Source: Geosiphon pyriformis uo1
Lineage: Eukaryota > Fungi > Glomeromycota
Assembly (NCBI GenBank): GCA_016748015.1
Contig: JAAOMT010000426.1
Span: 1 to 27,051, forward strand
DNA: 27,051 nt
Direction of reading: 5' to 3'
Shown here: positions 1,553 through 27,051 of the stretch, one piece after another
Layout: every line of letters starts with the position of its first letter
How positions within the stretch are numbered: position 1 is the first letter of the stretch
Notes under the pieces: model-generated
What the model was told of the DNA's origin: nothing
What the model saw: only the letters and a program-made list of their open reading frames with translations
Databases searched by the model: none
Position numbers and translations under genes: made by a program

Positions 1553-2634
1553 TTATAATCGTAAGTATCCATTAACGTTGTTATCTTCCTCGATTTGCGA
1601 TTCATATTTACGATACAATTCCATAGTGGCACGAGCATCTTCCACAGAATCATGTGCATTTTCCTGAATTTTAATGCCAAGTATTTCTTTAGCAAGGAAT
1701 TTCAATGATGGATATCGTCCGACTCTAGACATTTTACGGAAATTTTTGTAAAGTTGAATATTTCTTGTAAGGATCATTGGGTGTCTAATTTCCAAGACCT
1801 TTATAAATATGACATTTAAATATTATGAATTTTGCGTATGAGCGTTTATAAATATTACAACCATTACCTTCAAGTCATGCTGAAGAGCAAATCCGATGAG
1901 AATACGATCCTTCAAAAGATTTTCAACTTGAATTTTGACCTCATCGAATAGAGGAGCTATTAAAATGAAAGGGTTATCAAAGAATGGCCGAATTTTATAG
2001 GGCGACTTGAGAATTCGTGGCAATAATAATTACCTGATTCGAGCAGCTCAGGAGTAACTCCACTGAATGGAGTACGATAATCAGTAACTTCATTTTTTGG
2101 TTTAACAAATGTATCTAACACCGTCTTGCCCTCGTAGTCGACAATACTCACACGAGCTAAAGCATTTTTCTTTGCTTTAGGGCCTATCCCAACCATTTCA
2201 CAATCAAGAGCAAGGAGCCTATTTTTATCTTGAAACTTGAGGTGAATTGAAAAAAAGATTCTTTAAAGCGATGTTGAAAATCAAGTAGGCTTGACTTTCT
2301 TTATTTCCGAAATTTTTTTATTAAATTTTAGTCAATTTCATTTGTTGGTTTCTCAAACCCTATTATTTTTTATTCGTTCTTCCCAGTTTTTTTTTCGTCA
2401 TTTCTCTTTGATTGAGATATTGTAAATACTTCACAGACTAAAAAATATATGCTTTTGTATCTCATTGCTCTTTCTTCCCTTTCCAGTTTTCTCGATCATT
2501 TTTCTTCATTTTCCCATTTCTCTTTTAAAATTTGATATTTGATATAACACTTAAGTTTCAAAAAGATATTCAATTTAACTTACTACTGTTTGGTTAGAAC
2601 CGCTCGAGATATCGTTTTGACGAAGAGTATTCAT
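1553..2634 (-). CDS. REX4: REX4/ISG20-family DEDDh 3'-5' RNA exonuclease, about 195 aa, 4 exons (2634-2584, 2235-2034, 1956-1868, 1798-1553)
   Basis: The spliced translation gives ExoI LLALDCEMVGIG..LARVSIVD, VTDYRTPFSGV, ExoII ILIGFALQHDLKVL, PSLKFLAKEILGIKIQ and ExoIII HDSVEDARATMELY. Introns 2033-1957 (GTAATT..TAG) and 1867-1799 (GTAATG..AAG) join the three ORF-track fragments in frame. Exon 1 and intron 2583-2236 (GTAAGT..AAG, phase 0) are less certain. The symbol is a family-level call and this may be a paralog. Confidence 0.9.
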
Positions 2635-3156
2635 GTCATAAGTTGTTAAATTTTATTCAAATATTAGAGATATCTATTGCTTCTACGAGAGGTATTTTAT
2701 ATTGGAAATTGGACATATACAGAAAGCTTTTAAATTGAAATTACAAAGCAAAACTAAATGTCAATTCAAAAAATTTTCTTCTAAATTTTCCTGCAGAAGT
2801 AAAGGTGAAATTCATTTCCCAGATTCTTTGCTAGAAATAAATAATGGCGATATTGTGATTAGGGAGTAATTATGGTGTCACTCTCAATGACTTTTTTGGG
2901 AAATGTTAGAATGAGCTTAGAGAGTTACATATGCAATTATCCCACCGAAAAACAAAATTTTAAACCGCATGGATTGGTGTAGTATAACAAACGTACTGCA
3001 TTGAAGGTAGCAATGTAAAAATTTTGATCAGTTTATAAATATCCTAGTTTATGTAATATCAAGTAGGAAATGTCTTTGGCCGGAGACTTTTGTAAAAATA
3101 CTGTGAAACCAATTCGAAGTGAATTTCCCCAAAATTTGAATCGAAAGAATAATTTT

Positions 3157-3950
3157 GACAGATAAGACTATTTTTTTATTTTGAAATATATATCTTTATA
3201 ACAGAGTGTTGACAAGATTATTAAGTAGCAAGATAAATCCATTTAAATTATAACATTATAGAATTGTTTATGTGTTATATATTATAAATTTTGAATATAT
3301 TTTAAAACACACATATAATTGAATTTTATACTAAATTTTCCAAATTATAAAAAATAGATTTACAATATAAGAAAGAATTAAACACATGATATTTGATTTT
3401 GAAAATCAAGTAATTAAAATTATTAAAAAACAAATTTTTTACATAAATTGAATAAATCAGATGAAAATTTTTTTTTCAACAATATAAAAAATTAATAGTG
3501 TTTTTAATGTACAAACTGTTATAATTTTTTTTATCAATTAGAAAATAATTATAGTTTATTATAATTTCACTGTTTTTAATCCAAAAAATATTTAATTTAA
3601 TAAATATAATAGATTTTATATTAAAATTCAATTAAAAAAAGTTAAGAAATATAATCTAAAAACTATTTTTTCAATTATTATTATAAGCTTAATAACAGTT
3701 TTAAAATAAAAAGTCAAAATCTTTTTATAAATTTCATAGCAAAAATTTTACAGCCAAAAAAACTTTTATATTTTATTAACCAATTTCTAATAAAGCTTTG
3801 ATTACATGCAATTTTTAATTTATTGTAAATTTTAAATCTTTGATATTAATTACATTTCTTAAACAAGTCTTTAAATTTGAATATATATTAGAATATTAAT
3901 TGGTTAAAAATAATTTTCCAGAGAAGAGCATATGTTAATATAAAATTCAA
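3157..3950 (+). mobile_element. Heavily mutated Ty3/gypsy (chromovirus-like) LTR retrotransposon relic: integrase C-terminal part, possible chromodomain and PPT
   Basis: 3157-3250 reads DR*DYFFILKYI/YNRVLTRLLSSKINPFKL, matching integrase W..LP..E.AYN....G.SPF.L once C>T/G>A changes are reverted. 3491-3511 INSVFNV resembles IHPVFHV. 3644-3715 KKYNLKTIF..LK*K resembles chromodomain EEY.VE.IL..KW.G. A purine run at 3920-3928 is followed by TG at 3933. All matches were made by eye. Confidence 0.45.
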
Positions 3951-3952
3951 AC

Positions 3953-5280
3953 TACAGTTAAATCTCTCTAAATGCACATCCTCGGAACCAACTTTTAGTG
4001 TGTATTTAGAAAATAGCCAATATTATTATTGCACGTGACTTTATAATAACGAAATTAAATCAATTTTATTAAAAAAGTTTCAATGCTGAATTGTTATAAA
4101 GACTTTTTATCTCTTAATAATGTTTTATCATATTTTGCAAATAAAATAAATCAATATTTGTTTGCTTTTTATTAAATTATTGATATTATTGATTATTATT
4201 AAAACTATTATTATTATTGATATTATAATAATTACTAATAGTATTGCTATTATTAATATTATTATAATCATTACAGCTAACAAGTTTTGAAAAAAATTTT
4301 GTATATTGTAAATAATTGTGTATTGTTGTTAATAACATTTTATATCAAGCTTGAACAATATTTTATATGACAGTAAAAATATTTATTTTATTATTTAATT
4401 TTGGATTTATATTTTTGAAGTAATTTCTTAACCAAATAGCAATAATAATAGTATTTAAAAAACATAACAATATTAATTATTATAAATTAAATACAAAATA
4501 TTGTGTTTAAAAAAAAAGTAAATAATTGTATTATTAATATTAAAATTGTTAATATAGCTTAATACATTGTTAAATAATAAAATTGTTTATAATCAATCAT
4601 TTTTATATTAAATTTTTTAAGCTATTATTAAAATAATACTTCTGTTATCTATTTCTTAATGGTTGTATTATATTTAATACCAAAATTGTTGTAATTTACA
4701 TTTTAAAAACAATGTAAATTAAGATATTTGTCAATAACAAATAATTTAATTTTATCAAATCCATTAGCATTAGCACAAAGTATTATAATAAATTGTTTTT
4801 GTTCTTTTTTTTTTTAAGACAAATTGTTATCAATGTAGTATCTGATTTAAAATTAATAAAAAATTAAGTTAATATAAATTAAATTAAATATAATTACATA
4901 TTAATAAAATAAACAAATTTTATTTATATTTTATATTTTTTTAATATTTTTTAAATTAAAAAATTGTTAATAGCAACAATAACATTATTTATAAAAGTAT
5001 TTTTTTTATGTTTTTTTGTTTATATAAATCTATGTTATTTCTTAAATTTGGCCAATTAACTATATGAAAACTTATAATTAATATTAGATATATTTAATTT
5101 TTATGCTTTTTTAGTTATAATTTTATCGGTTATTACTATTTTATTTTGGCTTTATAAAATTTATTTATGTAATATATATTTATATTCAATATTAAATTGT
5201 TTTTTGTTTTTTGCAAAAAACTTTTTTATTTTATTTATTAAACAATTAATAGCAGTGTTATAAGTTATTGTAATATGCTA
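3953..5280 (-). mobile_element. Degenerate pogo/Tigger-family (Tc1/mariner superfamily, CENP-B-like DDE_1) DNA transposon; transposase pseudogene
   Basis: The minus-strand translation keeps the family motifs in the correct order: LHK*IL* (LxEWIL); FSYS*LAKFKK*H at about 5070-5032 (FS.GWL.KFKKRH); KSDTTL..KKKKNK; LCANANGFDKIKLFVIDKY..HCF at about 4780-4706 (CANADGSEK.KP.VIGK...PRCF); KK*IT..LF***LKKF (KAWMT..F.EWL..F); ILLFNNVLSY (LLLLDNA.SH); IVQA*Y..TTIHNY (AW..V...TI.NC); an Asn-rich tail (formerly Asp-rich); and C-terminal QFSIETF. The element ends in a CAGT terminus flanked by TA at 3953-3954. The 5' end and second TIR were not found. Confidence 0.85.
3955..4013. repeat. Terminal inverted repeat of the pogo-like element, with an internal palindrome
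   Basis: TA|CAGTTAAATCTCTCTAAATGCACA...; CTCTCTAAATGCACA (3964-3978) pairs with TGTGTATTTAGAAAA (3999-4013) at 12 of 15 positions. It lies just past the transposase C-terminus. Confidence 0.7.
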
Positions 5281-7779
5281 ATAAATAGCAAAAAAGAACA
5301 AATATTATATGGAAAAAAACAATCAAAGGAAAATTCAATCTAAAAAAACAAATTAAATTTGTAAGAATTTAATATGCAAGATTAATTTTATAAATATCTT
5401 AGTTGATATTCTTTTCAAACATAAGAAAAAAATCTAAAAGTTGAAAAATAATTTGTACTATTAACAAAAGATAACACAACTCCTATAATTATATGTTTTA
5501 TATTAACACTTTTAAAATTTAATAACAAGTATTATTTTGACTTATTAATAAATATTTATTACAAAAGCTAATAATATACAAATAAGGAAAAAAATAAGAA
5601 TTAAGAATATGAGTAAATTAAAATTGTTATATTAATCTTGTAACAAAAAAATAATTTTAGTCTAGAATAAATTTTTATAGTTTTGAAAAGTTTTGCTTAT
5701 ATATTTTTGAAAAAAGATCAATAATCAATTAGTAATTACATTAATGATTTGGTTAATATTCAAGTCAATAATTAAATCAATAAACAAATCAATAATCCCA
5801 TTAATAATTCATTCTAAAAATAAGATGGCTAATATAGATGATATTAGTAATTAATATATATAGTTGAATAAATTGTAATTTTTGATTTTGATTTCTAATT
5901 TTTTAATTTTAGTATCAATAATAAATTTATCATTAATTGTGATCAAGTAATATTTAATTTGTTACACAATTACAATCAAATAATAAATAAGTATTATCTT
6001 GATTGTAAACAATTAAATTTGTGTAATTTTTAATATATTATCGAAATTTTAAATCTGAAACTTTTGACAAGGAGGCATTTAGATTATGCTGATATTAAGA
6101 CTTTTTGTAAGTAAAACTTTTTTTATTAAAAATCAAAGACTTAAAAAGTATAATTGAAAATACTAGGCTCATCTTGTTCATCTCAAGTTTCTCCCAATTG
6201 TTATAATATAAATCTCGAACAAAAATTGGTCTATCAGCTTCCAAGGATTGAAAGGCTCATGATATTTTGTTCATCTTGATTAACCGACTTCAGAATTATA
6301 CTATTCCAAGGATGAGTTATGCATCACCCATTATTGTCTCTCAAGGAGTGGTATGCCACAACTCAAGCTAATAGTAGTCGTCTATGGAAATGCAATATGA
6401 TCAATCGTCACAAGGGTCGATGGCAATTTCTTACAAAACCCTTTTCGATTCAATTACAATGAGAGCTGTTATCTGGTTTTTCTTTGCGTATTTTTCTTAA
6501 TTGCTTGCTAACCAAGTATGATCTAAATAGCGGAGAATATCGGAGAAAATTCTGAGGTAAGCGTTTCAAATGAAATGAACATGTAAATAATACTTTTGAG
6601 TAAAGTTAGTGAAAAAAAGATATGAAATTCGTTATTGAGGAGTTTTCTAGTCGAGCCATTTCATTTAATTATTAAAAAGACATGCGAAAACTTGAAAAGA
6701 TATTCATGATAATATTATCAACGATATCATCGCGGTTTGCAATGGTCACATCAACGAAAGAATTCATTCTTGTGCATTTTTGTGCTGTTAATGGCGTTTA
6801 ATGTTTCAATTATAACTGCGTTTTCAATTACTTTTAGAAGTTTAAAATTGGAAATTTAGATCTTGTTATAAATTCAATGTCCGTTTCATAAGATATATAC
6901 TGAGAATCCAAATAATACTTTTTCGAGGATCACAAAATCAAAATCGATGAACAACTATTTTTTCATCAATTGATGTCCGCGATGGTTGGATAAACTGAGC
7001 TTTGAAGTTTTTAAAGGTATTAAGTCAGATCGAAGAAATGGAAGAGGCCTCAACGTTTTTTATTTTAGCCTTTGGTATAACTACACTATAGCTAAAAACG
7101 ACGATTTTGGAGAATAATTGCACTATGGGCATGATCTGTTTCTTAAAAATAGTCTAATCTATATATTTTTAAAAATCAGGTTCTATAGCTCAATGTCACA
7201 ATGGCAAATTTATAATTACCGAATCCATGTTCTGAAAATAAGGTTTAGAATTTACTATTTTAATCAATAATTGTCAACTTTCCTGCTTAATTACTTGAAT
7301 GACTATTTGTAAATCGTATTTTATCTATTTCCGATTTCTGATACCCACACTGAATATAGACAAGGTTGAATAGTAATTTTTTTGATTGAGTTCCTAATTT
7401 ACTCATTTATAATCCTTTAAATTTCTGGATATTGGTGTGTTTCACAAAGCTAAATATTATTTTTTCACAATGGTAATTGATCTTTTTTCCTTGATAAAAA
7501 TTTTCTCCAGGAATGCATCAAGATGTCTGATTTTTTACAACAAAGCGAAGAACTTCTTCGCAATTGATGATGATTCAACCTCAATCTGTTGTCACGAGCG
7601 AGTATCAAATAAGAAAAATTATTTACAGTAATAAAACTACTAAAATGTGAGCTTGAAAAATGAATAGTATATATCATAAATTAATTAAAACTTTTTACAA
7701 CAATGATAATACTACATGATTTGTCAGGATGACCCATGAGTGAAAGTGCCAATGGTTTATTAATTGTCCCAGGGTTTGG

Positions 7780-9557
7780 TTATACGAGATTGGTATATGA
7801 TGTTGTTTCTGACATTGGTTTCATGGGCGATGAATTGGGTGAATACTGAGGGTTTCTATATAAATAGAATTGGAAGAAAATCTACGCGTAGCAACCGTTG
7901 ATAAAGATTTGAGGATGAATTTGGTAAAAAATCAATTCGTTAATAAAATTTTGGCAACATTCCGGAAATAGACTACAAATATTGTTTGGATGAGACTTAC
8001 GATGAAATCAAAAAATAGCGTTCCTCCGCTGCCAATTAGCCATGGAAGATTCATTAAAATGAATTCGCGTTCAACTGAGTGGAATAAGATTGACTGAAAA
8101 AAAATAGAACAACCAATTTTCAATTTAAATTCGTTGAAATGGAAAGAAATTTAAGTAGGCAAGTTCTTACCAAAAAATAAGTTGAATTTCCTAAGACAGC
8201 AAACACGAACATTGCAATTGATAATCCTTCACAAGATCGATTTTGAAAATTCATTAAAATTTGTGGAATTCGCGAACCGACTATTTTCAAAAACGTGTGA
8301 TTTTTAGATATGATCAGGTGAAAATCATAATTTGGAGGAGAAAAGCAAATTTTAAAATTTAATTACTTACGATAGAGAAGTGCACTACCCCATCCAAGAC
8401 TTTGAGCCAACCAAACAACATGAGATGAATCATTGGACTCTGAGGTGGTGTATTCGTTATTGAACATTGAACTTTTTATTTTCCACAATATTATATGATC
8501 ATCATTAACAATCGAACCCGGAGTATCGTTATAATGATATAAGACAAGCATTCCAGTTAAGCCGATACAAGATACTAAAGCTAGTAACTCCAGAACGCCT
8601 GGAAACTTTGATCGAGATTGTTGTTGGGGTATTTCAGCTGGTGAGGAAGATTTATGATCCATTGGCACTAGGGGTGTTTCTTCTGTGTCATCACATATCA
8701 CTGTAATTTCGTCTTCGGTTGAATTTCGTCCGAATTTGCGATAGTAATACACTTGAGTCAGAATGAGTGTATCTTGAAAAATATAATAGGAGGCGAGAAG
8801 AATCTAAAAGGAAGAACAATAATAAAGGTTAAAAATTAAATGCCAAAGGAAAATCTTTCGTTATTGAGGAAAACTAAACTGATGAAGAAGATAAGAGCAC
8901 ATGTAAAAGTTCGCTCAATCTGGATAAGGTCTATGGAGATTATGATCTTCATGCGGCATTTTTGGATCATGGGAACAATCATTTGACAGTTAATTAATCA
9001 CACATGAATACAGGACATGTATGCAGTACTGCAGAACGCGCGTGTTCCCCGCCTAATGTTTGGTTGCTTTTTTTGAAACTTATAGTCACAAAGAAACCAA
9101 CGTGGATGTGTTTGAAGTTTCTTACCATAGTAAGTAACAAATTTTGTAATAAAGCACCTGCCAGGTTAAGCATATCACCGGCAAACCATATTAAAAGAAA
9201 TGTCGTTGATATTGAGTCGCTTGACTTTCGTTTATAATTTTTATAAAGTTGACTATTAGATTTTGAAGAAGAAAGTAAAGAGTGTTACAATATGTTAGTA
9301 AAAATTCAGAAATAGGTTTTAAATGTCACTGAAAAGTGACAGGATTATAGATCAGAAAGTTGCAGACTTTGTTTCAAAACTACACACTTTTCTGTGATGT
9401 TTTTTTAACTTTGAAAACAATGTTGCTTGTTAAAGGCGTAACAAATCGTTTTGTTGAGTTTTACTCACGGAGCTAGAACCACAATCCAACAACCGATGGA
9501 GATTGAACCGAAAATGTAGGACGCGATATCGTTTTGAGGAAAAGTAAAATTTGCCAT
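7780..9557 (-). CDS. YPQ1: PQ-loop repeat vacuolar/lysosomal cationic amino-acid transporter (YPQ1/RTC2/PQLC2 family), 317 aa, 6 exons (9557-9469, 9252-9126, 8803-8371, 8280-8171, 8093-8001, 7881-7780)
   Basis: Five GT-AG introns (GTGAGT, GTAAGA, GTAAGT, GTAAGA, GTAAGT donors) give one uninterrupted 954-nt frame. It encodes two PQ loops, GSISIGCWIVVLAPQLYKNYKRKSSDSIS..FLLIWFAGDMLNLAGA and LGWGSALLYLGSRIPQILMNFQNRSCEGLS..MF.FAVLGN, then NLPWLIGSGGTLFFDFIIFFQF. An acidic dileucine-type sorting signal EETPLV lies in the central loop. The symbol is family-level. Confidence 0.95.
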
Positions 9558-10688: not shown

Positions 10689-13600
10689 CAATTATTATCA
10701 GAAATAACTGGTTGAGGGGCTTATCATTTTTTTAAGGCCGAACCAATGATTAGATCAGGAAATCATTTGACACAGGGGATGACTGTAGTGATGTCAGGCA
10801 ATAACACTATTTTCATATTTGATAAGGTTGTTATAATATGATTGCTGATCCACTTTCCCCGTACCTCGATTAGAGGTAATGTTGAAAGTGGCTAAAAGAC
10901 AAAAGCCACTACGATACCAAAAAAACGGCGATCAGCAGCATATCTGCAGGAAAAAGACGCCGTTTATCTTCCATATCTTGTTGTCGTTCTGCAAAGCGAC
11001 AAACATTGTAACCATGTGAATGTGGAATATAGAATTATCGGCAAGTAACAGCGACTATAATTGAACTCGCACCGGCTTTTCGATTAATAAGTTCAGAGGA
11101 AAGAAATATTTGCAAATTTATTGTTGGGTTTCTTTGTTTTTTACGATCCCCTGTCAATAAACCGAAAGCTTGTTTGTACAGTTCAAACATCAGAAAAATA
11201 ACCCAAAAATCGTTCCCCCAAGCTCTCTCAATGTCGGTTATCATCAAGATTAATTCTTTTAAACTTTGTTTTAGGCATTAACTGTCAGTAATTTACTCGC
11301 ATTTGCATCAAAAAGATTTTCTCTTAGGCAGGCGCTATATTATGCACGTAATGCTCCACAAATATTATTGACTATCGAACTTGGGGACTAGGACAATGCA
11401 CAAATCATATCCTCATTTAAGGCTATGTTAGTCTCACATGAGGAAAATTACGAACAAACATTCCTCCTATACATCATGTGTTCCAATTGTTTTGATTTAA
11501 TCTTAACGTAATTTCGGTTTTCCTGTTTTTATCACTAATCGGGGTTTTATTTTATTCAAATGGAAAAAATTTACACCGAAATGCTTTTATGATCATTTTT
11601 GAAAGAATCAATAAAAGATGCGCTTTTTAGCCTTCAAAAGAAGTTTTTATCCAAATAGGAGACTCTGGCTAAGTTTATATGCATTATTAGCATTTTTCTA
11701 AAAAGACCAAACCTTAAATTATTGATTGATACTGTTTAGATTTGCTATCTAATTTATTTCATGTTAGGTCAAATTTATGGTTCTATTGCCTGGTCTGCAA
11801 TTATTATCTTTCAAAGATTTGGAATATGATAAAAATTAGAAGAATTCGAAGAGGTTATTATACTCAAAAGATTTTTCATTTTCGGGAAAACATTTTTAAA
11901 AATCTATAAAGGAAAAAATTTAATTGAAAACCCTCAATTCAAAATATATCCTTAAAAATTTATATAATTTGGGCTATTATGCAAGGGGGACTAAAAATTT
12001 TTTCATCAAATTTTCTTGAAAAATTTACCACCCTGTTAATCTTAATTAATTGCAAAAATATAAAATGGATCTTTGCAAACACAAAAACTATAAACACATT
12101 AAGAATTTAGGGTGCAGTGTTTGGTTTTTGATTTTAAATAAATTTTACTCTTGAATTTGGATTTCAAGATTTGATTACGGTGATCCATTATCTATAATTT
12201 AAGAACTTTAATCTTTAAGTCTGAATCAATTCCTTCTAGGACTTTTTCAATCTCTTTAATTGATTCAAAATTAAAAAATGAAAAATAGTCAACTACTTTA
12301 TTTAGTTTATTTATGTATACAAAATGTTTTTTGAGTTTATTATAAATTGTTTGGGTTTTGATTAATCTCCTAAAATGGTAAGGCTTGAGGAAAATTCTCA
12401 TTAGATATTTTTGGTAAATTGCAAATAATCACAAATTTTGTTTTTATTTGGAATTTTTTGAATTCAACACGTCAATATAAATCTTTGTAAAGAATTATTG
12501 TTGGTGTGGATTTAAGATAATTTTTTAAATATTGCATTTTATAATGAGGTTTAATAGCTTTCTTTCATCTGCTTATAATTGGAAGAATGGTTAAAAATAT
12601 CCTGAAAGTATAAGGAAATAAAGAATATCTGCTATGTAAGGATAATTCTAAACTTAATAAACCACCTTTCTTTCAATTGAATTGTGAAATCCAAAACTTT
12701 AAGCAGTTATTTTCAAACATGGATGTATTTTGGGGTCTCATATTCTATATTTATATTTCTTTGGATTCATAAATATTTTAATATTTACACGAATGCTTAA
12801 AAGAGCTTATTTAAAATTGGAGGTATCTTCAGCTCATTGATAGCTTAAGAAGTTTTTATTGACTTTAGGAAGATTTCAAAATCATTCCTACAAAATATTG
12901 CGACAGAAATTCATATTCTTCTCTCATTCTAATTTTGTACTTGATTTTTCTGACAGTCTTTTGATGATGAACAATCTTTCTACTTCTTAAGCTTCAAGAT
13001 TGAAAATCCCCTTTACCGGCGCTATTGGCATCTAGACCATTGGCGTTAAATAAAATCTAAAAATTTTTAGTCGAAATCTTTCAGCATATAGTTCCATCTC
13101 ATTATTTAAACATACTATGAAAAAATATCATTTTTATTGTTGATTCGTCGCGTGCATTGTTTCATTTAAATATATATCAACTGAGTTGAGTTTAACAACC
13201 TTCCTGTAAATACTTTTTTGGCAACAGATTACAAAATTCAAACGAAATTTTCAGTGTCCCACATGAATCAATGTATAAATGTACAGAAATTTGTTCAGGT
13301 AATTTATGTTTTATTAAACAAAGTCTTTCTTTATTACATATGGGGCAAAGTATATATGAAGAACATCAATTTTTCAGCGATGGTTTATAAAGAAAGTGCA
13401 ACGCTCTTTAGTAAAAATTTTCTTCCAAAACCATAATTTTTTTTAATGTTACATAGCATCACAAAGTTCAGAATGTATGCTCTTGAAATATACTAAATCA
13501 GGAACAAGTATTTTCCTAGTCTTTTTAAACCAATGGTTAATGCATAATTTAAATCATCACATCCAAAAAGTTTATTGTTATCAAATTTAAATGGCATTTT

Positions 13601-15156
13601 GCTTTAAGAGAAGAAATCACCAGAAATTGTTTGAAAATAATTTTTTTCAACCAAACACTACATTGTAATTTGTCTTATCATCTATCACAAAAATTTAGGC
13701 CAAAATTTTAATATTTATTAAGTATATTTTTTAAGGTTTTGGTTTTTTATACTTAAATAAGTATTTCTTTATCATTTCTTTTTTTGATTTTATTGAGCTG
13801 AAACAGTAAACACAAAATAACTTTTTAATTTTTCTTTGGAATATAATTACAATTCTTTTCATTTGTAAATATAATTGAAAAATTAATTAATAACTTTTAA
13901 AATTGACCATAATCTAATTTTAAACATTATTTAATTAAAGATTCTTAATTACAGAAATATATTTAAAATTTTAAAAAGAAAAATAAGCTAATCCTTGAAA
14001 TATAAAAAGCTTATTTGTTGGAATGATAAGAAATTTGGGATAGTTATTTCATGTCCATTTTGACTATGCCATTTATAGGCGATAAGACTAAACCTATCAA
14101 GCGTTAAGATATTGATTCTCATACCGAAGGAAATTATTTATATTTTTGTGGTCATCAGAACACCCTTTATTGAAAAATGTTTATCTGATTCATTATTTGA
14201 AAAAAAGCTTACCAAAATATGCAAAAGAAGTCACCATCTTTTTTTTTGAGCATGCAATCGACAAAGTCGAAGTTTATGTGCAGCTCCACTGTTTTGTACA
14301 AGAAAACAACTCATCAATTCCTGTTAACTATATTAAAATAAAACGTCATGCATTTCAAGATTTGTTAAAAAGTTAAGGTTCCGAAAAAATTTCCTCGTTA
14401 ACGGATTTTTTGGGCGCATTCAAGGAACTCTCAAATATTATTTTTTAAGCATTCTTGATTATCAAATCTTTTTATAAAGTAGCTAAATCCTTTTTCAGAT
14501 ATTATAAAGACTTTCAATGACTTAAATTTTTACACTGTCAAATCGTTTGAAGAAATCCATTTCTATTTTGAAACAATAGAATTTGCTCTAAAATAGATAT
14601 TTAAGAAAAGACGAAAAGACTAGCATGTGCAGCGTAATCTTAAGTTATATTGAACAAATTCAAGAGAAAAAAAAGTAGAATCCTTTTTGCTGTCAAGTTT
14701 AAATTTTATTTAAAAGGTTGGAAAATTTTGATCCAAATTAGAAATTAATATCAAATAGAAGTAAAAATGATATCTGTTGTATAAAGTTTCCAAATTTTTC
14801 ACGGAATTATCGATTACGAAAAAAACTTGAAAATATATTATTATAAATTCTTTTATCTATATGAAACTAAAGTTTCATGCCTATAATTTTTTTAATCAAA
14901 GATCATGATATTTAGTTCGAATCCAAAAAATTTTAATAAAATTTAAGGTAAGAATTTAAATAATTATAAAATCATGAATTCAAAATTTTAGTTTTTTAAA
15001 ATTGTTATATTAACATCTTTGTAAAAATATTTATTTTTTAAGGTGGATTCTATAAATTTTAGTCTTTTAAGTACATATTTACAAAAAGAAAAAAAATGAA
15101 ACTCAATTTAAAATTAACAAAATTTCCAAGTTTTTAAAACTTAAAATAACTAGTAA

Positions 15157-15186
<30 letters not shown>
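15157..15186. repeat. (ATT)10 microsatellite
   Basis: Direct tandem repeat. Confidence 0.9.
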
Positions 15187-15188
<2 letters not shown>

Positions 15189-15881
15189 GCATTATAGTAT
15201 TTTATAAAATGTTGTTATTAATACTTACTTTAAAAATTTTGTAAATTTTATACAAATAACTATTTACATTTTGGATTTATAGTCTAAGAATAATTGGTTA
15301 ATAAAAGATTTTTACATAAAATTTCTTTTTAATTGGTGGTTTTTATTTGATTTAAAAACTTTGATAAATATAAAATTGTATAATTTTTTAATAAACTTTA
15401 ATGTATATTTTTATCTTTAATTTTATATAGTAGAATTTATATTAAAGATGTATAAAAAATATAAAATTTCATTTGATATTTGTTTAGAATATATACAGAA
15501 AACCATAATATATATATATAAAATATAGTTAATACTGATTATAATTATTACAGTTGTTAAAACTTATAGGTTTGTCCTGCAGATCCCTTGCAGTGCACAG
15601 ATCTTCACCCTGTGGTAATATTTTTATTTAAAATGGTCATAGATCATCAACACTTCGAATCATGCCTGTTCTTATTTTTTAGGAAATACAAAATTTTCAG
15701 TTGAGGTCTTCTAAAGGGTAAAGGTTTCAATAAGTTTTATATTATTAGGATCAAACATTTTTACCTGTTATATCAGTCGACAGGTTGGAAGCTCGTTTGA
15801 AATGCCAATAATTGGCTATTTAGTGACTCAAAAAGCTTTTATCTGCTGCTTTTCTTATCAGGAGCTCAAAAAATCTTGATC

Positions 15882-16733
15882 ATGGGAGATTATTTAGGCA
15901 AAGAATTCATTGAAAAGAAAAGTAATCGATCAACCGCTAACTTCTCAACTTTACAAGATGATAGGATAGTGCTGAATGTTGGTGGGACAAAGGTATAAAA
16001 TAAAGTAGAACCTACTTTTCATTTGCCATGCGTAAAAGCATTTCAAATATAAATTTAACTATCAAAAAATCGCTAGTTTGAAACACTTCGTTCAACATTG
16101 ACTGCCTACCCAGCAACACTTCTTGGCACCATGTTTCATGAAAGGAATCGAAGTTTAGTTAAATTGACCGACGATAATGAATACTTTTTTGATCGAGATC
16201 CACGAGCATTTTCATACATTATGGAATTCTACCGTAATGGTGAGCATGAGTGGCCAAACTTTGCCAATTCTCTTACGAAGAAAGAACTAAAACGGGAACT
16301 AGATTTCTTTGGTATTCCAACAGCAGATTCTCTCAATCAAATTGGGAAAATTTCACTTGAAGAGCAAGCTGCAACATTAGACGAATTTACTGAAGTAATG
16401 AGAATGGTCATACTTGAGATGCAGCGGCTTTTTCGAAGAAGGATTACTATTAATTTTCCGATTTTTGAATTCTATTTGTTTTCCGTCGTCCCGGATTTGG
16501 AGGTGATAACTTCTTTGTTAAAGCCGTATCAAATAATCGGCTCACCTATTGCTGAACATTTTGGCGTAGCAATAGGCAAACACTTGTCCATTGAGTTCCC
16601 AGGATTAGTCTATAAAATTAGCTCAACGACTGTGAAAAATGGCAATGAGGAAAATGCGTATAAATGGGAGTTGAAGGTTCCTTTGGCTTTTGAAAATAGA
16701 TTCGTAATTGAAAGATCTTCTTTGAAGAGATGA
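15882..16733 (+). CDS. BTB/POZ domain protein (KCTD / potassium-channel T1 type) with an uncharacterised C-terminal region, 255 aa, 2 exons (15882-15992, 16077-16733)
   Basis: Intron 15993-16076 (GTATAA..CTAG, phase 0) joins RIVLNVGGTK to FETLRSTLTAYPATLLGTMF...EYFFDRDPRAFSYIMEFYRNG...LKRELDFFGI, the canonical KCTD/T1 BTB motifs. No channel transmembrane segments follow. Confidence 0.92.

Positions 16734-20347: not shown

Positions 20348-20395
<48 letters not shown>
20348..20395. repeat. (AAT)16 microsatellite in the last intron of the pseudogene
   Basis: Direct tandem repeat. Confidence 0.95.
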
Positions 20396-21679
20396 TGTAA
20401 GATATTTGATTTGGTGAAACGTCAAAATTTTGAAAAAAGGCTAAATCTTTGAAATCAAACCTTAATTACAAATTGTGGAATATCCTCAATAAAAATATTG
20501 ATGGTACTACCCTAAAAGATCAAATCTTCAAGTCTTTTGGAAATTGGTGCACTGAAAAGCTTCAAATTTGCATACTTTGAATGTAAAAGATTCAGAGCAT
20601 CTATATCAGCTGCAGAGAGTATAGTGAATAAGGCAGCGGGCTTTGCAAATTTCCGAAACCATACAACATATTCACTATTCATGCTAATCTCATTGATTAT
20701 GATGTATCCTGCCAGTCCCGTGTTAAAAAGAAAAGGTATTACTAGAAAAATATTACTATTCAAAGAAACATATACGAATTAATTATATTTGCTGTTTTTA
20801 AATTTTTAATGCATTTACAATTTATAAATTAATTACCTTGGTAAATATAAAAATCCCACATCTTTTCCGTTTTTTATATTGAATGTGATGTCAACTATGA
20901 TATCGACTAGAATTAATATAATAGAAACAACTGCAGAGCTATTACCCTAAAATTAGTAAAAGTTATTAAAATATTTATTTAATTTAAATCTTAAACTAAT
21001 AATTATCTGCGAAAAAAATCCAAATACCTTGGGATTTTTTTTTTTTCCTATAAAATATAGACCCATTAATATTATTGGGTTAATAGCAATTGCAATTAGA
21101 TAAAATTTATTTTCTTTCCAAAAATTCGCTAAAAACCAAAAAATTATTAAATTATCTACAGTTTCATAGAAATCAAATAATGAAGATTGATTCATGCTCA
21201 CTCACGTTGAACTTGGAACCCAAAAGTCTCATCTAAAAAGCCCGTATGTGAATAAGTGCTAATGGGAGTGAACCATTTATTCTCGATTAATTCATTGAGG
21301 TCATGTGCAATTTCCTTTGGATTTCTAGAACCGCTTTTTGAAGAAATTTGAAGTCGTAATATTGCTCGGCCTACTGATTCTGATTTAGATTTATCAATCT
21401 TATGATCAATAATTTTGATACGACTTCTTTCAACTGGGATTGTAAAAGATAATTGATCCTCAAGTGTTTTGAAAACTTCTCGTTCGTTGTTAATTTTGTT
21501 GAAATCCGAGAAATTTGTATTCAGACGTAAGAATCCAATCAGGGTAGCTTAAAATCAATAATTATTATGTATTTTAGTTAGATAGCGACCTTAAAAATTT
21601 TCTAATAAAAAATAAACAATAAAACTTCTTACCTGCATATTTGCTTTCTTTTCCTTCTAAACGATTCAAATAAAATAAA

Positions 21680-21715
21680 AAACAAACAAACAAACAAACA
21701 AACAAACAAACAAAC
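21680..21715. repeat. (AAAC)9 microsatellite, intronic
   Basis: Direct tandem repeat. Confidence 0.95.
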
Positions 21716-23620: not shown

Positions 23621-26187
23621 AAAAATGTGAACACAACTTCTTGGGTTTTTTTTAATAATTGGGCGGGATTCCTTTTTATAAAGATTTAAGGCCTACATCT
23701 AATTTATCGAAAAATATAACCATTCAAAACTTTCGTGGCGTGGGGTGATGCAAAAATACTAAAATATGAATAGATTACAATTATTAATGAACTAATCAAA
23801 TAATTATCTATGGTTTAGGTAATAATAATGAAATAAAAAACAATTAATTTTAAATATAAATACAAACATGAAATTTTTAAAATTAATTTATCAAAAAGTT
23901 GTGAAAATAAAATCTCTAAACTATATCTACACTATCAGCTATCCGACTTCCTCTTTTTTGTGATTATTTTTAGTCCCTTTATGTTATTTTTACTTTTTAC
24001 TTTTTTTTATCTTTCTTAATTTATTTCATCATTATTCTTTATTTAAATCTCGAAATTAGATTCTTAATTATTTTTTTGATCGCTTAATAAATCCACAAGA
24101 AGTGACATATACCACAGATATTTTCCTAATTCTTTTGTATTTTTTGCTAGAAAATTTATTTTTTTATTTCATATCTGTTGTTGTTGCTATTGAAACTAGA
24201 TTAAAAATGTAATTTTCAACGAAAAATATTTGTTTATCTCGAAAATTAATTAATTAAATCTTTTTTTGATTAAAATCTTCTATTTTCTAAATGAAATTAA
24301 ATCACTTTCATTTTATTTCCTTCTATAAACAATTAGATGATGATTTAAAATTCTAAACCAACTTGAAAAAGCAATCTCAACGAAAACAATAAAGAGTTTC
24401 ATTTCTAATTTTGATTTAGTCTAAAAAAAAAATTCTTTGTTCCTCTATTTGCATGCCTGAAATCTTAATTACTAAGAGTTTTCCACCATCAACCAACCAA
24501 CCAACCAACAAACAAACGGAACAAATTGAGTATTCAAAAAAACTTGGAGCTTGGAAAGATTTATGAAATAACAGCGGTCCGGATAATCATTGCCTACACA
24601 GATCTGTTATTAATACATGTAAAAACTAGTTTCGGATATATATTTATATAAGATTTTATCATTGGTTACACTCACTTTTATCATAAGTTGTTTAAAAATT
24701 ACAGATAGTAATTTTATCAGATAGGTAGAAGTAAATCTTAAAGTCTGTATTCACAACTCATTTTATTTCCTTTGACAAAAACCAATAACATCACATGCAA
24801 TGATCTTACCATCTTATATGCATCGACTAAGTCGTTGACTTCTTCAAAGCAAGAAAAAAAAGGGCAAAGAGCATCAGTACAAACTTAAAATAAGATGATT
24901 ATAGTTGGAACCAGCATAATTGTCTTATATGGTAAATCCCAAGTTTTTGATTTAATTCTATAATTTGTAATTTTTCTAATATCAATCAGCTAAATTTTTT
25001 TTAAATCACTAATTCTAAAATTCTTTTCCAATTTTTTTATTGAAGAATAATCTACAAACCCAACTCTATTCGTACTTTACCCAAAAAAACCAAAACTAAT
25101 ATGACCCCTATTACAACTTCTTTCTTGAAATGAGAACAAAAACAAACAAAGGAATACCAAAAGTCATCATACAAGACAGCACCAAAATTACAACTTAATT
25201 TGAATATGTTTAGTTTTGAGATAATTATTCTGACCTAAAAAAGTGGTCCCATAAAAAAAAAGTGCATAATTAAGAATTGGGTTTTACTAAAAAAAAATCA
25301 TTTGTTTGATCATCTTAACTAAAAAATTATTAAAAAGAACCAATTCTTATCCTCTTTGGAGCAGTCAAAAATGGCACTGGCTTGGATATATTTAAATATA
25401 TATTGAGAAAAATCTTTATCACCGACATTATTATGTGGTAGTTTAAAATGATAATTGAACACAAACTAAGCAACAATTAGAGAAAGAAAGAAAGAAAAAA
25501 ATTCAAGTAGAATGCCTCCTATTTGATTAATTCCAACAATCTTGGCAACAGCAAAAATAACGATAATGCTATGATGGGTGTTAAAACAAAAAGATCAAGA
25601 AAGATAACATAATCTTATAATCACAATTACTTGTTCACTTTGTCTGGTTTTGTTGCAGCACGCCTCATATACAGCATAAAACTAAAGATTTGAGATGGCT
25701 TATAAGTTAGCAAAGCTAAATGACACATATACTCTAAAGAAAAATAAAATGCTAATTTTTAATTAAAACTCGAAATATCAAGAGAGTAGTCAGCTGACTG
25801 GATAAATAATTTTAAAATGCCATTCTTCCTAGTTCTTAATGAAGACCCTTTTCAAAGTCGAAATCAAAAAAAAAAACGATTCAGTCAGCAAGTTAAAGAA
25901 GATTATCAAGTAGAGAGTGTCATTTTTAGATCATATTTTTGCGAACGTACTTGTGCTTTAAAGATTAATATTTTTACCAGCAAGGAAAGAGATGAGCTGA
26001 AAATCCTGTAAGAAAAGCCTTATGCTAAAATTTGCAATAGAGAAAGACTGAGTTCATGAGCTAAATTTATTATTATCTGCTTCTATTTGATAAGGAATTC
26101 ATTTAACTCTTTAGCAGCTTTTGACAAACGAAAGGGAAAAGAAAAAGAAAAAGAAAAAGAGAGCAGATATATTGAACGAAAGTTTGG

Positions 26188-26232
26188 TTCTATTAACGAC
26201 TTTATTTTCTATTAACGACTTTATCTTCTATT
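26188..26232. repeat. 19-bp tandem duplication (TTCTATTAACGACTTTAT[T/C]), about 2.3 copies
   Basis: Direct tandem repeat. Confidence 0.8.
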
Positions 26233-27051
26233 GTAATCTAAAAAAAATCAATTTCTTGTGGCAAATATTCAAATCAATAAAAAATGCTAGATAAGCCTGG
26301 AATAAAAGTTTATCATAACAAAGAATAAATATATACTAATTTTGTTTGTAAATTAGAATTTTGAAAACTTCTTTGAGATAAAAGATATAGTGTGATAGGT
26401 GATTGGAGAAAAATATTTTCAAAAAAAGGTTAATAATTATATTATCTATTACTTTATTTTGTTAAAATGAGATATTACAAAAAAACAAATAAGCTCAATT
26501 TATAAGATTTTTATTTTGTGCATCTTAAAAAAAATTGTAAAATATCCCATAAAACTTTGTTATATCCTTCTTGAAAATCAATAAAATGGGCTCTTTTAAT
26601 AATCAAATACGATTCAAGGTCGATTTCTGGGAAAATTTAATATTATTACTGTAATTTTTATGGCATCAGGTTTTTATTTTTTGATGCATGAAAACCACAG
26701 CAATTTCTGGATAGCCTCTAAAGTAATTCAAAAGTATAGAAAACCAGATATAAACTACACCTTTCCTACAATGATTAAATGGATAAATCAAATTGATATT
26801 TCACTAAAAATCAATCAAATCAAAAAACGCTTACAGTCACAACTCAAGAGCCAAATTTTAACTGATGATGAAGAGTTAAAGGTTTCCTCGGTTATTGCAT
26901 TCATGATAAATGCCATTGACTGCCTCGGTCTAAATAATATTGGCTCAAGAGTACCTCGTTTACAAATTAAAGGTTTTTGATTTCCGAAAAAAATTAGTCT
27001 TTATTAAAAGTTTCCTTAAAGAAATTAATATATCTTTCAAATACTATTAAT

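Follow-up and report, generated by a model that had tools for sequence, protein, structure and literature searches.

Dense C-to-T hypermutation, neither CpG-limited nor of the CpA type, in a dead pogo/Tigger transposon copy of the Glomeromycotina fungus Geosiphon pyriformis

The genome sequence of Geosiphon pyriformis uo1 contains, in the 27,051 nucleotides of contig JAAOMT010000426.1 (assembly GCA_016748015.1, forward strand; hereafter the window), an AT-rich and almost CpG-free block at positions 3157..6040, and the middle of this block, 3953-5260 on the minus strand, is by its sequence a dead DNA transposon of the pogo/Tigger group (Tc1-mariner superfamily). Our analysis of this copy demonstrates that transposon DNA of a Glomeromycotina member has undergone strong and local C>T hypermutation, neither limited to CpG nor of the CpA type, a result which rests on one copy. 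As set out below, we lean towards the explanation that the cytosines were methylated in all contexts by an enzyme of the DIM-2 type and that the resulting 5-methylcytosine (5mC) was then deaminated.

The substitution spectrum was determined against relatives of the element, the DNA of which was taken from 86 loci, six in fungal genomes and 80 in metagenomes (the best 80 of 91). A base was considered ancestral where at least three of five relative lineages had a base and all of these agreed, and columns within three positions of a gap were dropped, which left 426 sites. C:G>T:A changes are present at 90 of the 138 conserved C:G sites and affect both strands (C>T 37/58; G>A 53/80), as the original prediction for this DNA had claimed, while transversions of C or G occur at 6/138, T>C or A>G at 10/288 and A/T transversions at 20/288 sites. 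When four lineages are required, the proportion is 64/99, and in a control with ten relatives, each compared with its own lineage left out, C>T amounts to 1-12%. After correction for multiple hits, C:G>T:A reaches 1.15 per site, which exceeds the reverse rate 33-fold and implies an equilibrium of about 3% GC. Since there are 37 C>T but only 4 C>A changes, and 53 G>A but a single G>T, misalignment of AT-rich sequence is no explanation for the pattern. When the gene is divided into six bins, each has a mutation load of 54-85%. Changes of C and of G alternate over the length of the element, and clear tracts confined to a single strand are not visible by eye. Conserved tryptophan codons have been converted to TAA (5163, 5058), TAG (4651, 4624) and TGA (4347), the very replacements that had been read from the letters beforehand.

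With regard to sequence context, the family CpG sites are lost without exception (11/11): seven have become TA, two AA, one TG and one CA, and since seven of the 11 now read TA, a second hit outside CpG is needed. When neighbours are assigned by majority, 69 of 99 non-CpG sites are mutated, in line with the earlier claim that CpG deamination alone is insufficient, and CpT is hit at 23/26 sites compared to 46/73 for CpA and CpC together (post hoc p 0.024). For 71 of the 138 sites the 3' neighbour is itself strictly conserved, and here the counts are CpA 22/35, CpC 11/16, CpG 5/6 and CpT 12/14, which do not differ significantly (p 0.21). On the 5' side, conserved neighbours give TpC 24/28, CpC 11/16, GpC 10/20 and ApC 7/20 (pyrimidine versus purine p 2e-4, with transversions excluded); TpC also ranks first among the 5' classes when majority neighbours are used (36/42), and cytosines next to a pyrimidine are mutated at 58/74 sites versus 15/34 for those between two purines (p 8e-4). 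GpC is found in the block at 2.05 times its expectation, which fits this effect of the 5' neighbour. The tabulation of transitions, transversions and contexts that had been proposed together with the original prediction therefore yields a strong C>T excess at non-CpG sites. The term 'context-promiscuous' used there is appropriate in that all CpN contexts are affected, but the contexts are affected unevenly, with CpG fully lost, CpT highest among the remainder and a 5' pyrimidine raising the rate. Likewise, the description as 'RIP-like', after repeat-induced point mutation (RIP), applies to the dense C:G>T:A changes on both strands but not to the CpA preference of RIP, which is absent, CpA being the lowest 3' class (22/35). 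The RIP substrate index (CpA+TpG)/(ApC+GpT) amounts to 1.26 for the block and to 1.30-1.38 for the flanks, while the respective values of TpA/ApT are 0.96 and 0.75-0.81, so that little would be noticed by a CpA-based screen.

The assignment of the element is based on its protein-coding remnants. A minus-strand frame at 4813-4394, in which stops were read as X, matches DDE_1 with 25.5 bits (E 1.2e-5; Pfam cut-off 22), and tblastn to pogo family members gives E values of about 1e-19, so that the transposase motifs initially noticed in the block can be assigned to pogo. HMMER returned 121 protein matches to the same frame, and six of the ten that were looked up are named Gigasporaceae proteins; a search from one Gigasporaceae match led mostly to Gigasporaceae pogo transposases. 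The helix-turn-helix (HTH) domain HTH_Tnp_Tc5 is matched weakly and under the Pfam cut-off (E 0.038), although matches to the HTH regions of the relatives are clear, and a word-based protein search with the HTH frame gave no match. An alignment of the pogo family against prokaryotic genomes and viral contigs identified no relatives there. Those that were found are only about 60% identical to the copy, and its anatomy, as read from an alignment with ten of the 86 loci, is listed here together with the block and the control gene.

1553..2634, minus strand: intact RNase T-family exonuclease gene (control) with three GT-AG introns (2236-2583, 1957-2033, 1799-1867), splicing exactly to protein P0169
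3157..6040, no strand: AT-rich, almost CpG-free block, delimited by composition and GC change-points
3157..3950, no strand: left AT-rich stretch, 14.9% GC, 0 CpG versus 4.4 expected
3953..3954, no strand: TA dinucleotide at the element end, the expected target site, seen on one side only; the ends of the relatives likewise start with TA-CAG
3955..4054, minus strand: 3' terminal inverted repeat and short 3' region, about 29% GC, three CpG
4055..4140, minus strand: remnant of the transposase C-terminus with internal deletions and a stop at 4057-4055, from its translation compared by eye with the C-termini of the relatives
4280..4852, minus strand: second exon remnant with the DDE (DDE_1) catalytic region, stops and frameshifts
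4853..4901, minus strand: remnant of the family intron after the DETGLFYR motif, both splice dinucleotides altered; a GT..AG intron is at the same place in the relatives L004-L007 and L009
4902..5260, minus strand: first exon remnant with a CENP-B/Tc5-type HTH region, from the weak HTH_Tnp_Tc5 match and the relatives
5271..6040, no strand: right AT-rich stretch, 15.6% GC, 0 CpG versus 4.7 expected

A 5' terminal repeat was not found in the window, and the 5' end of the gene is missing as well. The second exon remnant has 14.5% GC and no CpG, compared to 36-42% GC and 17-29 CpG in the relatives. The near-absence of G and C pointed out previously is exact in its counts (3/60 at 4861-4920 and 4/60 at 4921-4980), though 41 of the 60 bases of the first interval are inside the family intron, which has only 10-33% GC even in intact relatives. 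The several indels and the 20/288 A/T transversions indicate that the copy is old. As a general feature of this fungal pogo family, the intron right after DETGLFYR comprises 60-75 bases, and the protein predictions in databases are often mis-spliced there.

The block as a whole has 15% GC versus 27-30% in the flanks and contains four CpG, three of them at the terminal-repeat end. In and around it CpG occurs at 3142, 3983, 4034, 4050, 5127 and 6042, and the CpG-free runs within it extend over 841, 1077 and 915 bases, for each of which about five CpG are expected from its own composition. The GC change-points at 3240 (3129-3275) and 6162 (6052-6167) are located near the nearest outside CpGs, 3142 and 6042. 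Judged by homology, about 1.3 kb of the 2.9-kb block (3953-5260) is pogo and about 1.6 kb is without identified homologue; the initial view of the entire block as transposon sequence is thus upheld for its middle, but the stretches 3157-3950 and 5271-6040 matched none of the 86 pogo loci in a transition-tolerant alignment, and hardly any mutation has reached the terminal 100 bp of the element. The same type of alignment of the outer stretches to other AT-rich blocks of the window gave a best score of 25.6, too weak to accept, and a six-frame Pfam scan of 3150-4200, 5250-6050 and 14600-15650 yielded nothing credible, two weak hits being taken as chance. The left stretch, 3157..3950, is likely to be another decayed repeat.

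The host controls are compositional and all come from within the window. The spliced product of the gene at 1553..2634 is exactly P0169, a 195-residue protein of Geosiphon pyriformis, by which the probable Glomeromycotina origin suggested earlier is confirmed. Three host introns (22-34% GC) contain 10 CpG versus 8.6 expected, five host open reading frames (ORFs) 67 versus 67.8 (third codon positions 20-34% GC), and three AT-rich spacers (20-22% GC) 21 versus 15.1. As introns, ORFs and spacers retain their CpG, the process is local, in agreement with the claim that nearby genes keep theirs; the comparison with introns that had been suggested alongside shows that general AT drift fails as an explanation. 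Databases list the exonuclease protein under two accessions, identical in sequence and each from a different contig, which may be due to a recent duplication or to assembly redundancy.

The terminal repeat differs from the interior. At 3955..4054, transitions are found at only 2 of 15 conserved C/G positions, a count for which 17 out of 36 ends of relatives, those alignable without a shift, were used (Fisher p 1e-4 versus the interior). Three of the four CpG of the block are situated in these terminal 100 bases, though no CpG occurs in the DNA that follows. One sequencing run, possibly the source of the window, has other contigs in which short pieces of the 3' end of the element are present with 1-8 differences. 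A bound protein shielding the end, conversion of one end by another or a mutator limited by pairing would each fit the spared end. Contigs aligned to part of the window yielded short pieces only, along with two variant rows, which is too little for a spectrum; none of the four sequencing runs listed is recorded as RNA.

Related copies elsewhere show decay of various degrees. In close pairs of relatives it affects mainly CpG: L005 and L006 are 24 transitions and one transversion apart, with changes at 14/88 CpG and 0/194 CpT. Among 28 metagenome copies polarised against relatives most have 0-5% C>T, five (L071, L072, L073, L076 and L086) have 8-19% with non-CpG sites included, and three others have 7-12%, with reverse changes as many or more. 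A tilt towards 5' pyrimidines is seen in the five (65/391 versus 22/284), which were selected post hoc from the 28 and are partly related. As a hint only, these five might possibly reflect the same process, at an early stage, in other fungi. L071 and L072 are separated by 47 transitions and one transversion.

For the hypermutation of the Geosiphon copy we consider DIM-2-type methylation in all contexts, followed by deamination of 5mC, to be the probable cause, if by a modest degree of confidence. According to this explanation, the copy would have resided in heterochromatin in which a DIM-2-type enzyme, supplemented by CpG methylases, methylated the cytosines, and the methylcytosines would have been deaminated to thymine across many mitotic generations, either spontaneously or in an enzyme-coupled fashion; Geosiphon would then possess and use DIM-2, and non-CpG 5mC would have been present on this copy. 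Methylation is the simplest targeting agent: the loss of CpG is complete, methyltransferases have been reported for the clade of the arbuscular mycorrhizal fungi (AMF), and the 5mC content reported for these fungi is very high. The AMF clade is reported with DNMT1, DNMT2, DNMT5, DIM-2 and RID, and 32.5-49.5% of Rhizophagus cytosines are methylated as measured by liquid chromatography-mass spectrometry (PMC8298701). Nanopore-called methylated CG sites, in contrast, make up only 13.8% of cytosines (PMC8647823), a gap across different isolates and methods from which we infer non-CG methylation. DIM-2 targets CG and non-CG DNA (PMC11315935), transposons of Phycomyces bear CG and CHH methylation (PMC11258239), and Dim2 drives mitotic C>T changes in Zymoseptoria transposons (PMC8016269). 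The expected footprint over all CpN with prominent CpT is seen here in the form of mutations (69/99 non-CpG sites; CpT 23/26), and the latter count matches the preference for CpT that is given for DIM-2 (PMC13297926). Several points weigh against DIM-2. The spectrum is that of one copy, compared to relatives only about 60% identical, and the strict 3' contexts are not significantly different. The Zymoseptoria Dim2 mutator acts to >98% on CpA with almost no CT methylation (PMC8016269), unlike the spectrum found here, and the accessible portions of PMC11315935 and PMC13297926 do not describe a 5' pyrimidine effect for DIM-2. In addition, the sparing of the terminal repeat inside an AT-rich block is hard to explain by spreading heterochromatin.

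Four candidate explanations were rejected: an ascomycete origin of the DNA by the exact match of the flanking gene to a Geosiphon pyriformis protein, CpG-only decay by the 69/99 mutated non-CpG sites and the seven of 11 CG sites turned into TA, general AT drift by the host introns, ORFs and AT-rich spacers that retain CpG, and canonical RIP of the CpA type by the absent CpA preference and the undepleted CpA/TpG index. A true relative of RIP, in which a RID/Masc1-type enzyme with a lineage-specific (T/C)pC preference would act on duplicates recognised by pairing, probably in a cryptic sexual stage, appears unlikely. The near-pure C:G>T:A spectrum on both strands at very high density and the fairly sharp edges of the block argue for it, as does the spared last 100 bp of the element beyond the internal deletions, which a pairing-limited process such as RIP might leave. 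It is further supported by the report of RID in the AMF clade (PMC8298701) and by the differences in RIP contexts among species (PMC4352252). However, CpA is not preferred (22/35) and the index of 1.26 is close to that of the flanks, the protein of the flanking gene is identical on two contigs (which may be assembly redundancy), and long terminal repeat elements make up 41% of the Geosiphon genome (PMC11952901). In addition, the accessible portions of a kingdom-wide k-mer screen report RIP-like enrichment in ascomycetes only (PMC12543289), with no occurrence of Geosiphon in its species table and the other supplementary files searched (12/19), and RIP signatures went undetected in Gigaspora margarita, as cited in PMC8647823. 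The broader proposal that Glomeromycotina possess a RID-dependent, homology-triggered mutator with a (T/C)pC signature invisible to CpA-based RIP indices, so that a RIP-type defence would predate the Dikarya, is in our view rather doubtful. If it were true, the scars would, RIP being premeiotic, be dated footprints of cryptic sex in a supposedly ancient-asexual AM lineage.

It might also be speculated that methylation acted together with light damage, as 5mC beside a pyrimidine forms photoproducts under ultraviolet light and would deaminate fast in poorly repaired heterochromatin, and the photosynthetic bladders of Geosiphon grow at the soil surface. The higher load of pyrimidine-neighboured cytosines (58/74 versus 15/34, p 8e-4) is in line with this idea, which we nevertheless regard as improbable, as 15 of the 34 purine-flanked sites are mutated too, host introns and spacers retain their cytosines, and a similar 5' tilt occurs in the five mildly decayed metagenome copies. 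Editing of transposon DNA by an APOBEC-like cytosine deaminase with a preference for TpC would account for TpC as the top 5' class (24/28; 36/42), but is very improbable: the C and G changes are interspersed without clear single-strand tracts, the complete loss of CpG points to methylation, and a DNA transposon offers little single-stranded DNA to edit. We give just as little credence to the notion of an old copy subject to ordinary AT-biased drift or CpG-only deamination, in which the non-CpG signal would stem from distant references or from a biased alignment. The relatives are indeed only about 60% identical, and the indels and A/T transversions (20/288) mark the copy as old; against this stand the low counts of C>A (4, versus 37 C>T) and G>T (1, versus 53 G>A), the 1-12% obtained for relatives left out, the mutation of 69/99 non-CpG sites and an implied equilibrium of 3% GC as opposed to 22-34% for the introns and 20-34% for the third codon positions of the host.

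AM fungi have been described as controlling transposons by CpG methylation and RNA interference, without RIP. A survey of AM-fungal transposons that includes Geosiphon (PMC11952901) has no occurrence of 'RIP' or 'repeat-induced', and our literature search, with most subscription papers outside its reach, found no publication describing hypermutation outside CpG for Glomeromycotina. Since the likely mechanism has already been described in other fungi, the novelty lies with the lineage and the signature rather than with the chemistry. The locus indicates that at least one member of the AM lineage destroys a transposon by mass C>T changes in all contexts, with a signature missed by the CpA/TpG index. 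DIM-2-type methylation would predict non-CG methylation on repeats; in their accessible portions, the AM-fungal methylomes of PMC8647823 and of a Gigaspora 3D-genome preprint called CpG only, and such callers would be blind to it. Landscapes of transposon age would be biased, because a heavy load of transitions reads as great age. The locus also allows a direct test of what DIM-2 and RID, both of them reported for the AMF clade, do there, and if RID rather than DIM-2 were responsible, it would bear on the question of sex in AM fungi.

Elsewhere in the window, further CpG-poor AT-rich stretches are present at 13402-14080, 14818-15600 and 26216-26610, with one CpG each versus 7.8, 4.7 and 4.2 expected, and these are likely to be other decayed repeats; a six-frame Pfam scan of 13380-14100 and 26150-27000 gave nothing credible. 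Simple repeats are located at 15157-15188 (ATT)n, inside the AT-rich block 14818-15600, at 20348-20396 (AAT)n and at 21678-21715 (AAAC)n. An intact BTB/POZ gene lies at 16077-16733 on the plus strand. An intron-split gene at 8120-9284 on the minus strand, which looks as if it encoded a PQ-loop membrane protein, had no Pfam match on the one exon frame scanned.

The locus can be compared to several known systems. Its element resembles the pogo/Tigger transposons of Gigasporaceae (e.g. P0137-P0142; DDE_1 and HTH_Tnp_Tc5) in domain order, in the intron after DETGLFYR and, at its 3' end, in the TA-CAG terminal repeat, while the Geosiphon copy is 5'-truncated, internally deleted and hypermutated. 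As in the decay of CpG-methylated transposons in AM fungi and basidiomycetes (PMC8647823, PMC4352252), CpG is lost from the transposon and kept in genes, but about 70% of the non-CpG cytosines are lost in addition. The RID-dependent RIP of Pezizomycotina (PMC12543289, PMC4352252) similarly results in dense C:G>T:A changes on both strands and in AT-rich islands beside intact genes; unlike there, the Geosiphon copy has no CpA preference, and its CpA/TpG index is not depleted. The Dim2 system of Zymoseptoria tritici (PMC8016269) is likewise dominated by C>T, confined to repeats, directed at non-CG cytosines and independent of a sexual cycle. However, CpG is barely mutated and CpA accounts for >98% in this ascomycete, whereas in Geosiphon, a member of the Glomeromycotina, CpG is gone, CpT is the highest non-CpG class and CpA is not preferred. 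DIM-2 of Neurospora crassa (PMC11315935, PMC13297926) shares with the pattern reported here the activity on all CpN, the preference for CpT and the AT-rich heterochromatin, although the accessible portions of these papers describe a methylation pattern rather than this mutational outcome, and no 5' pyrimidine preference.

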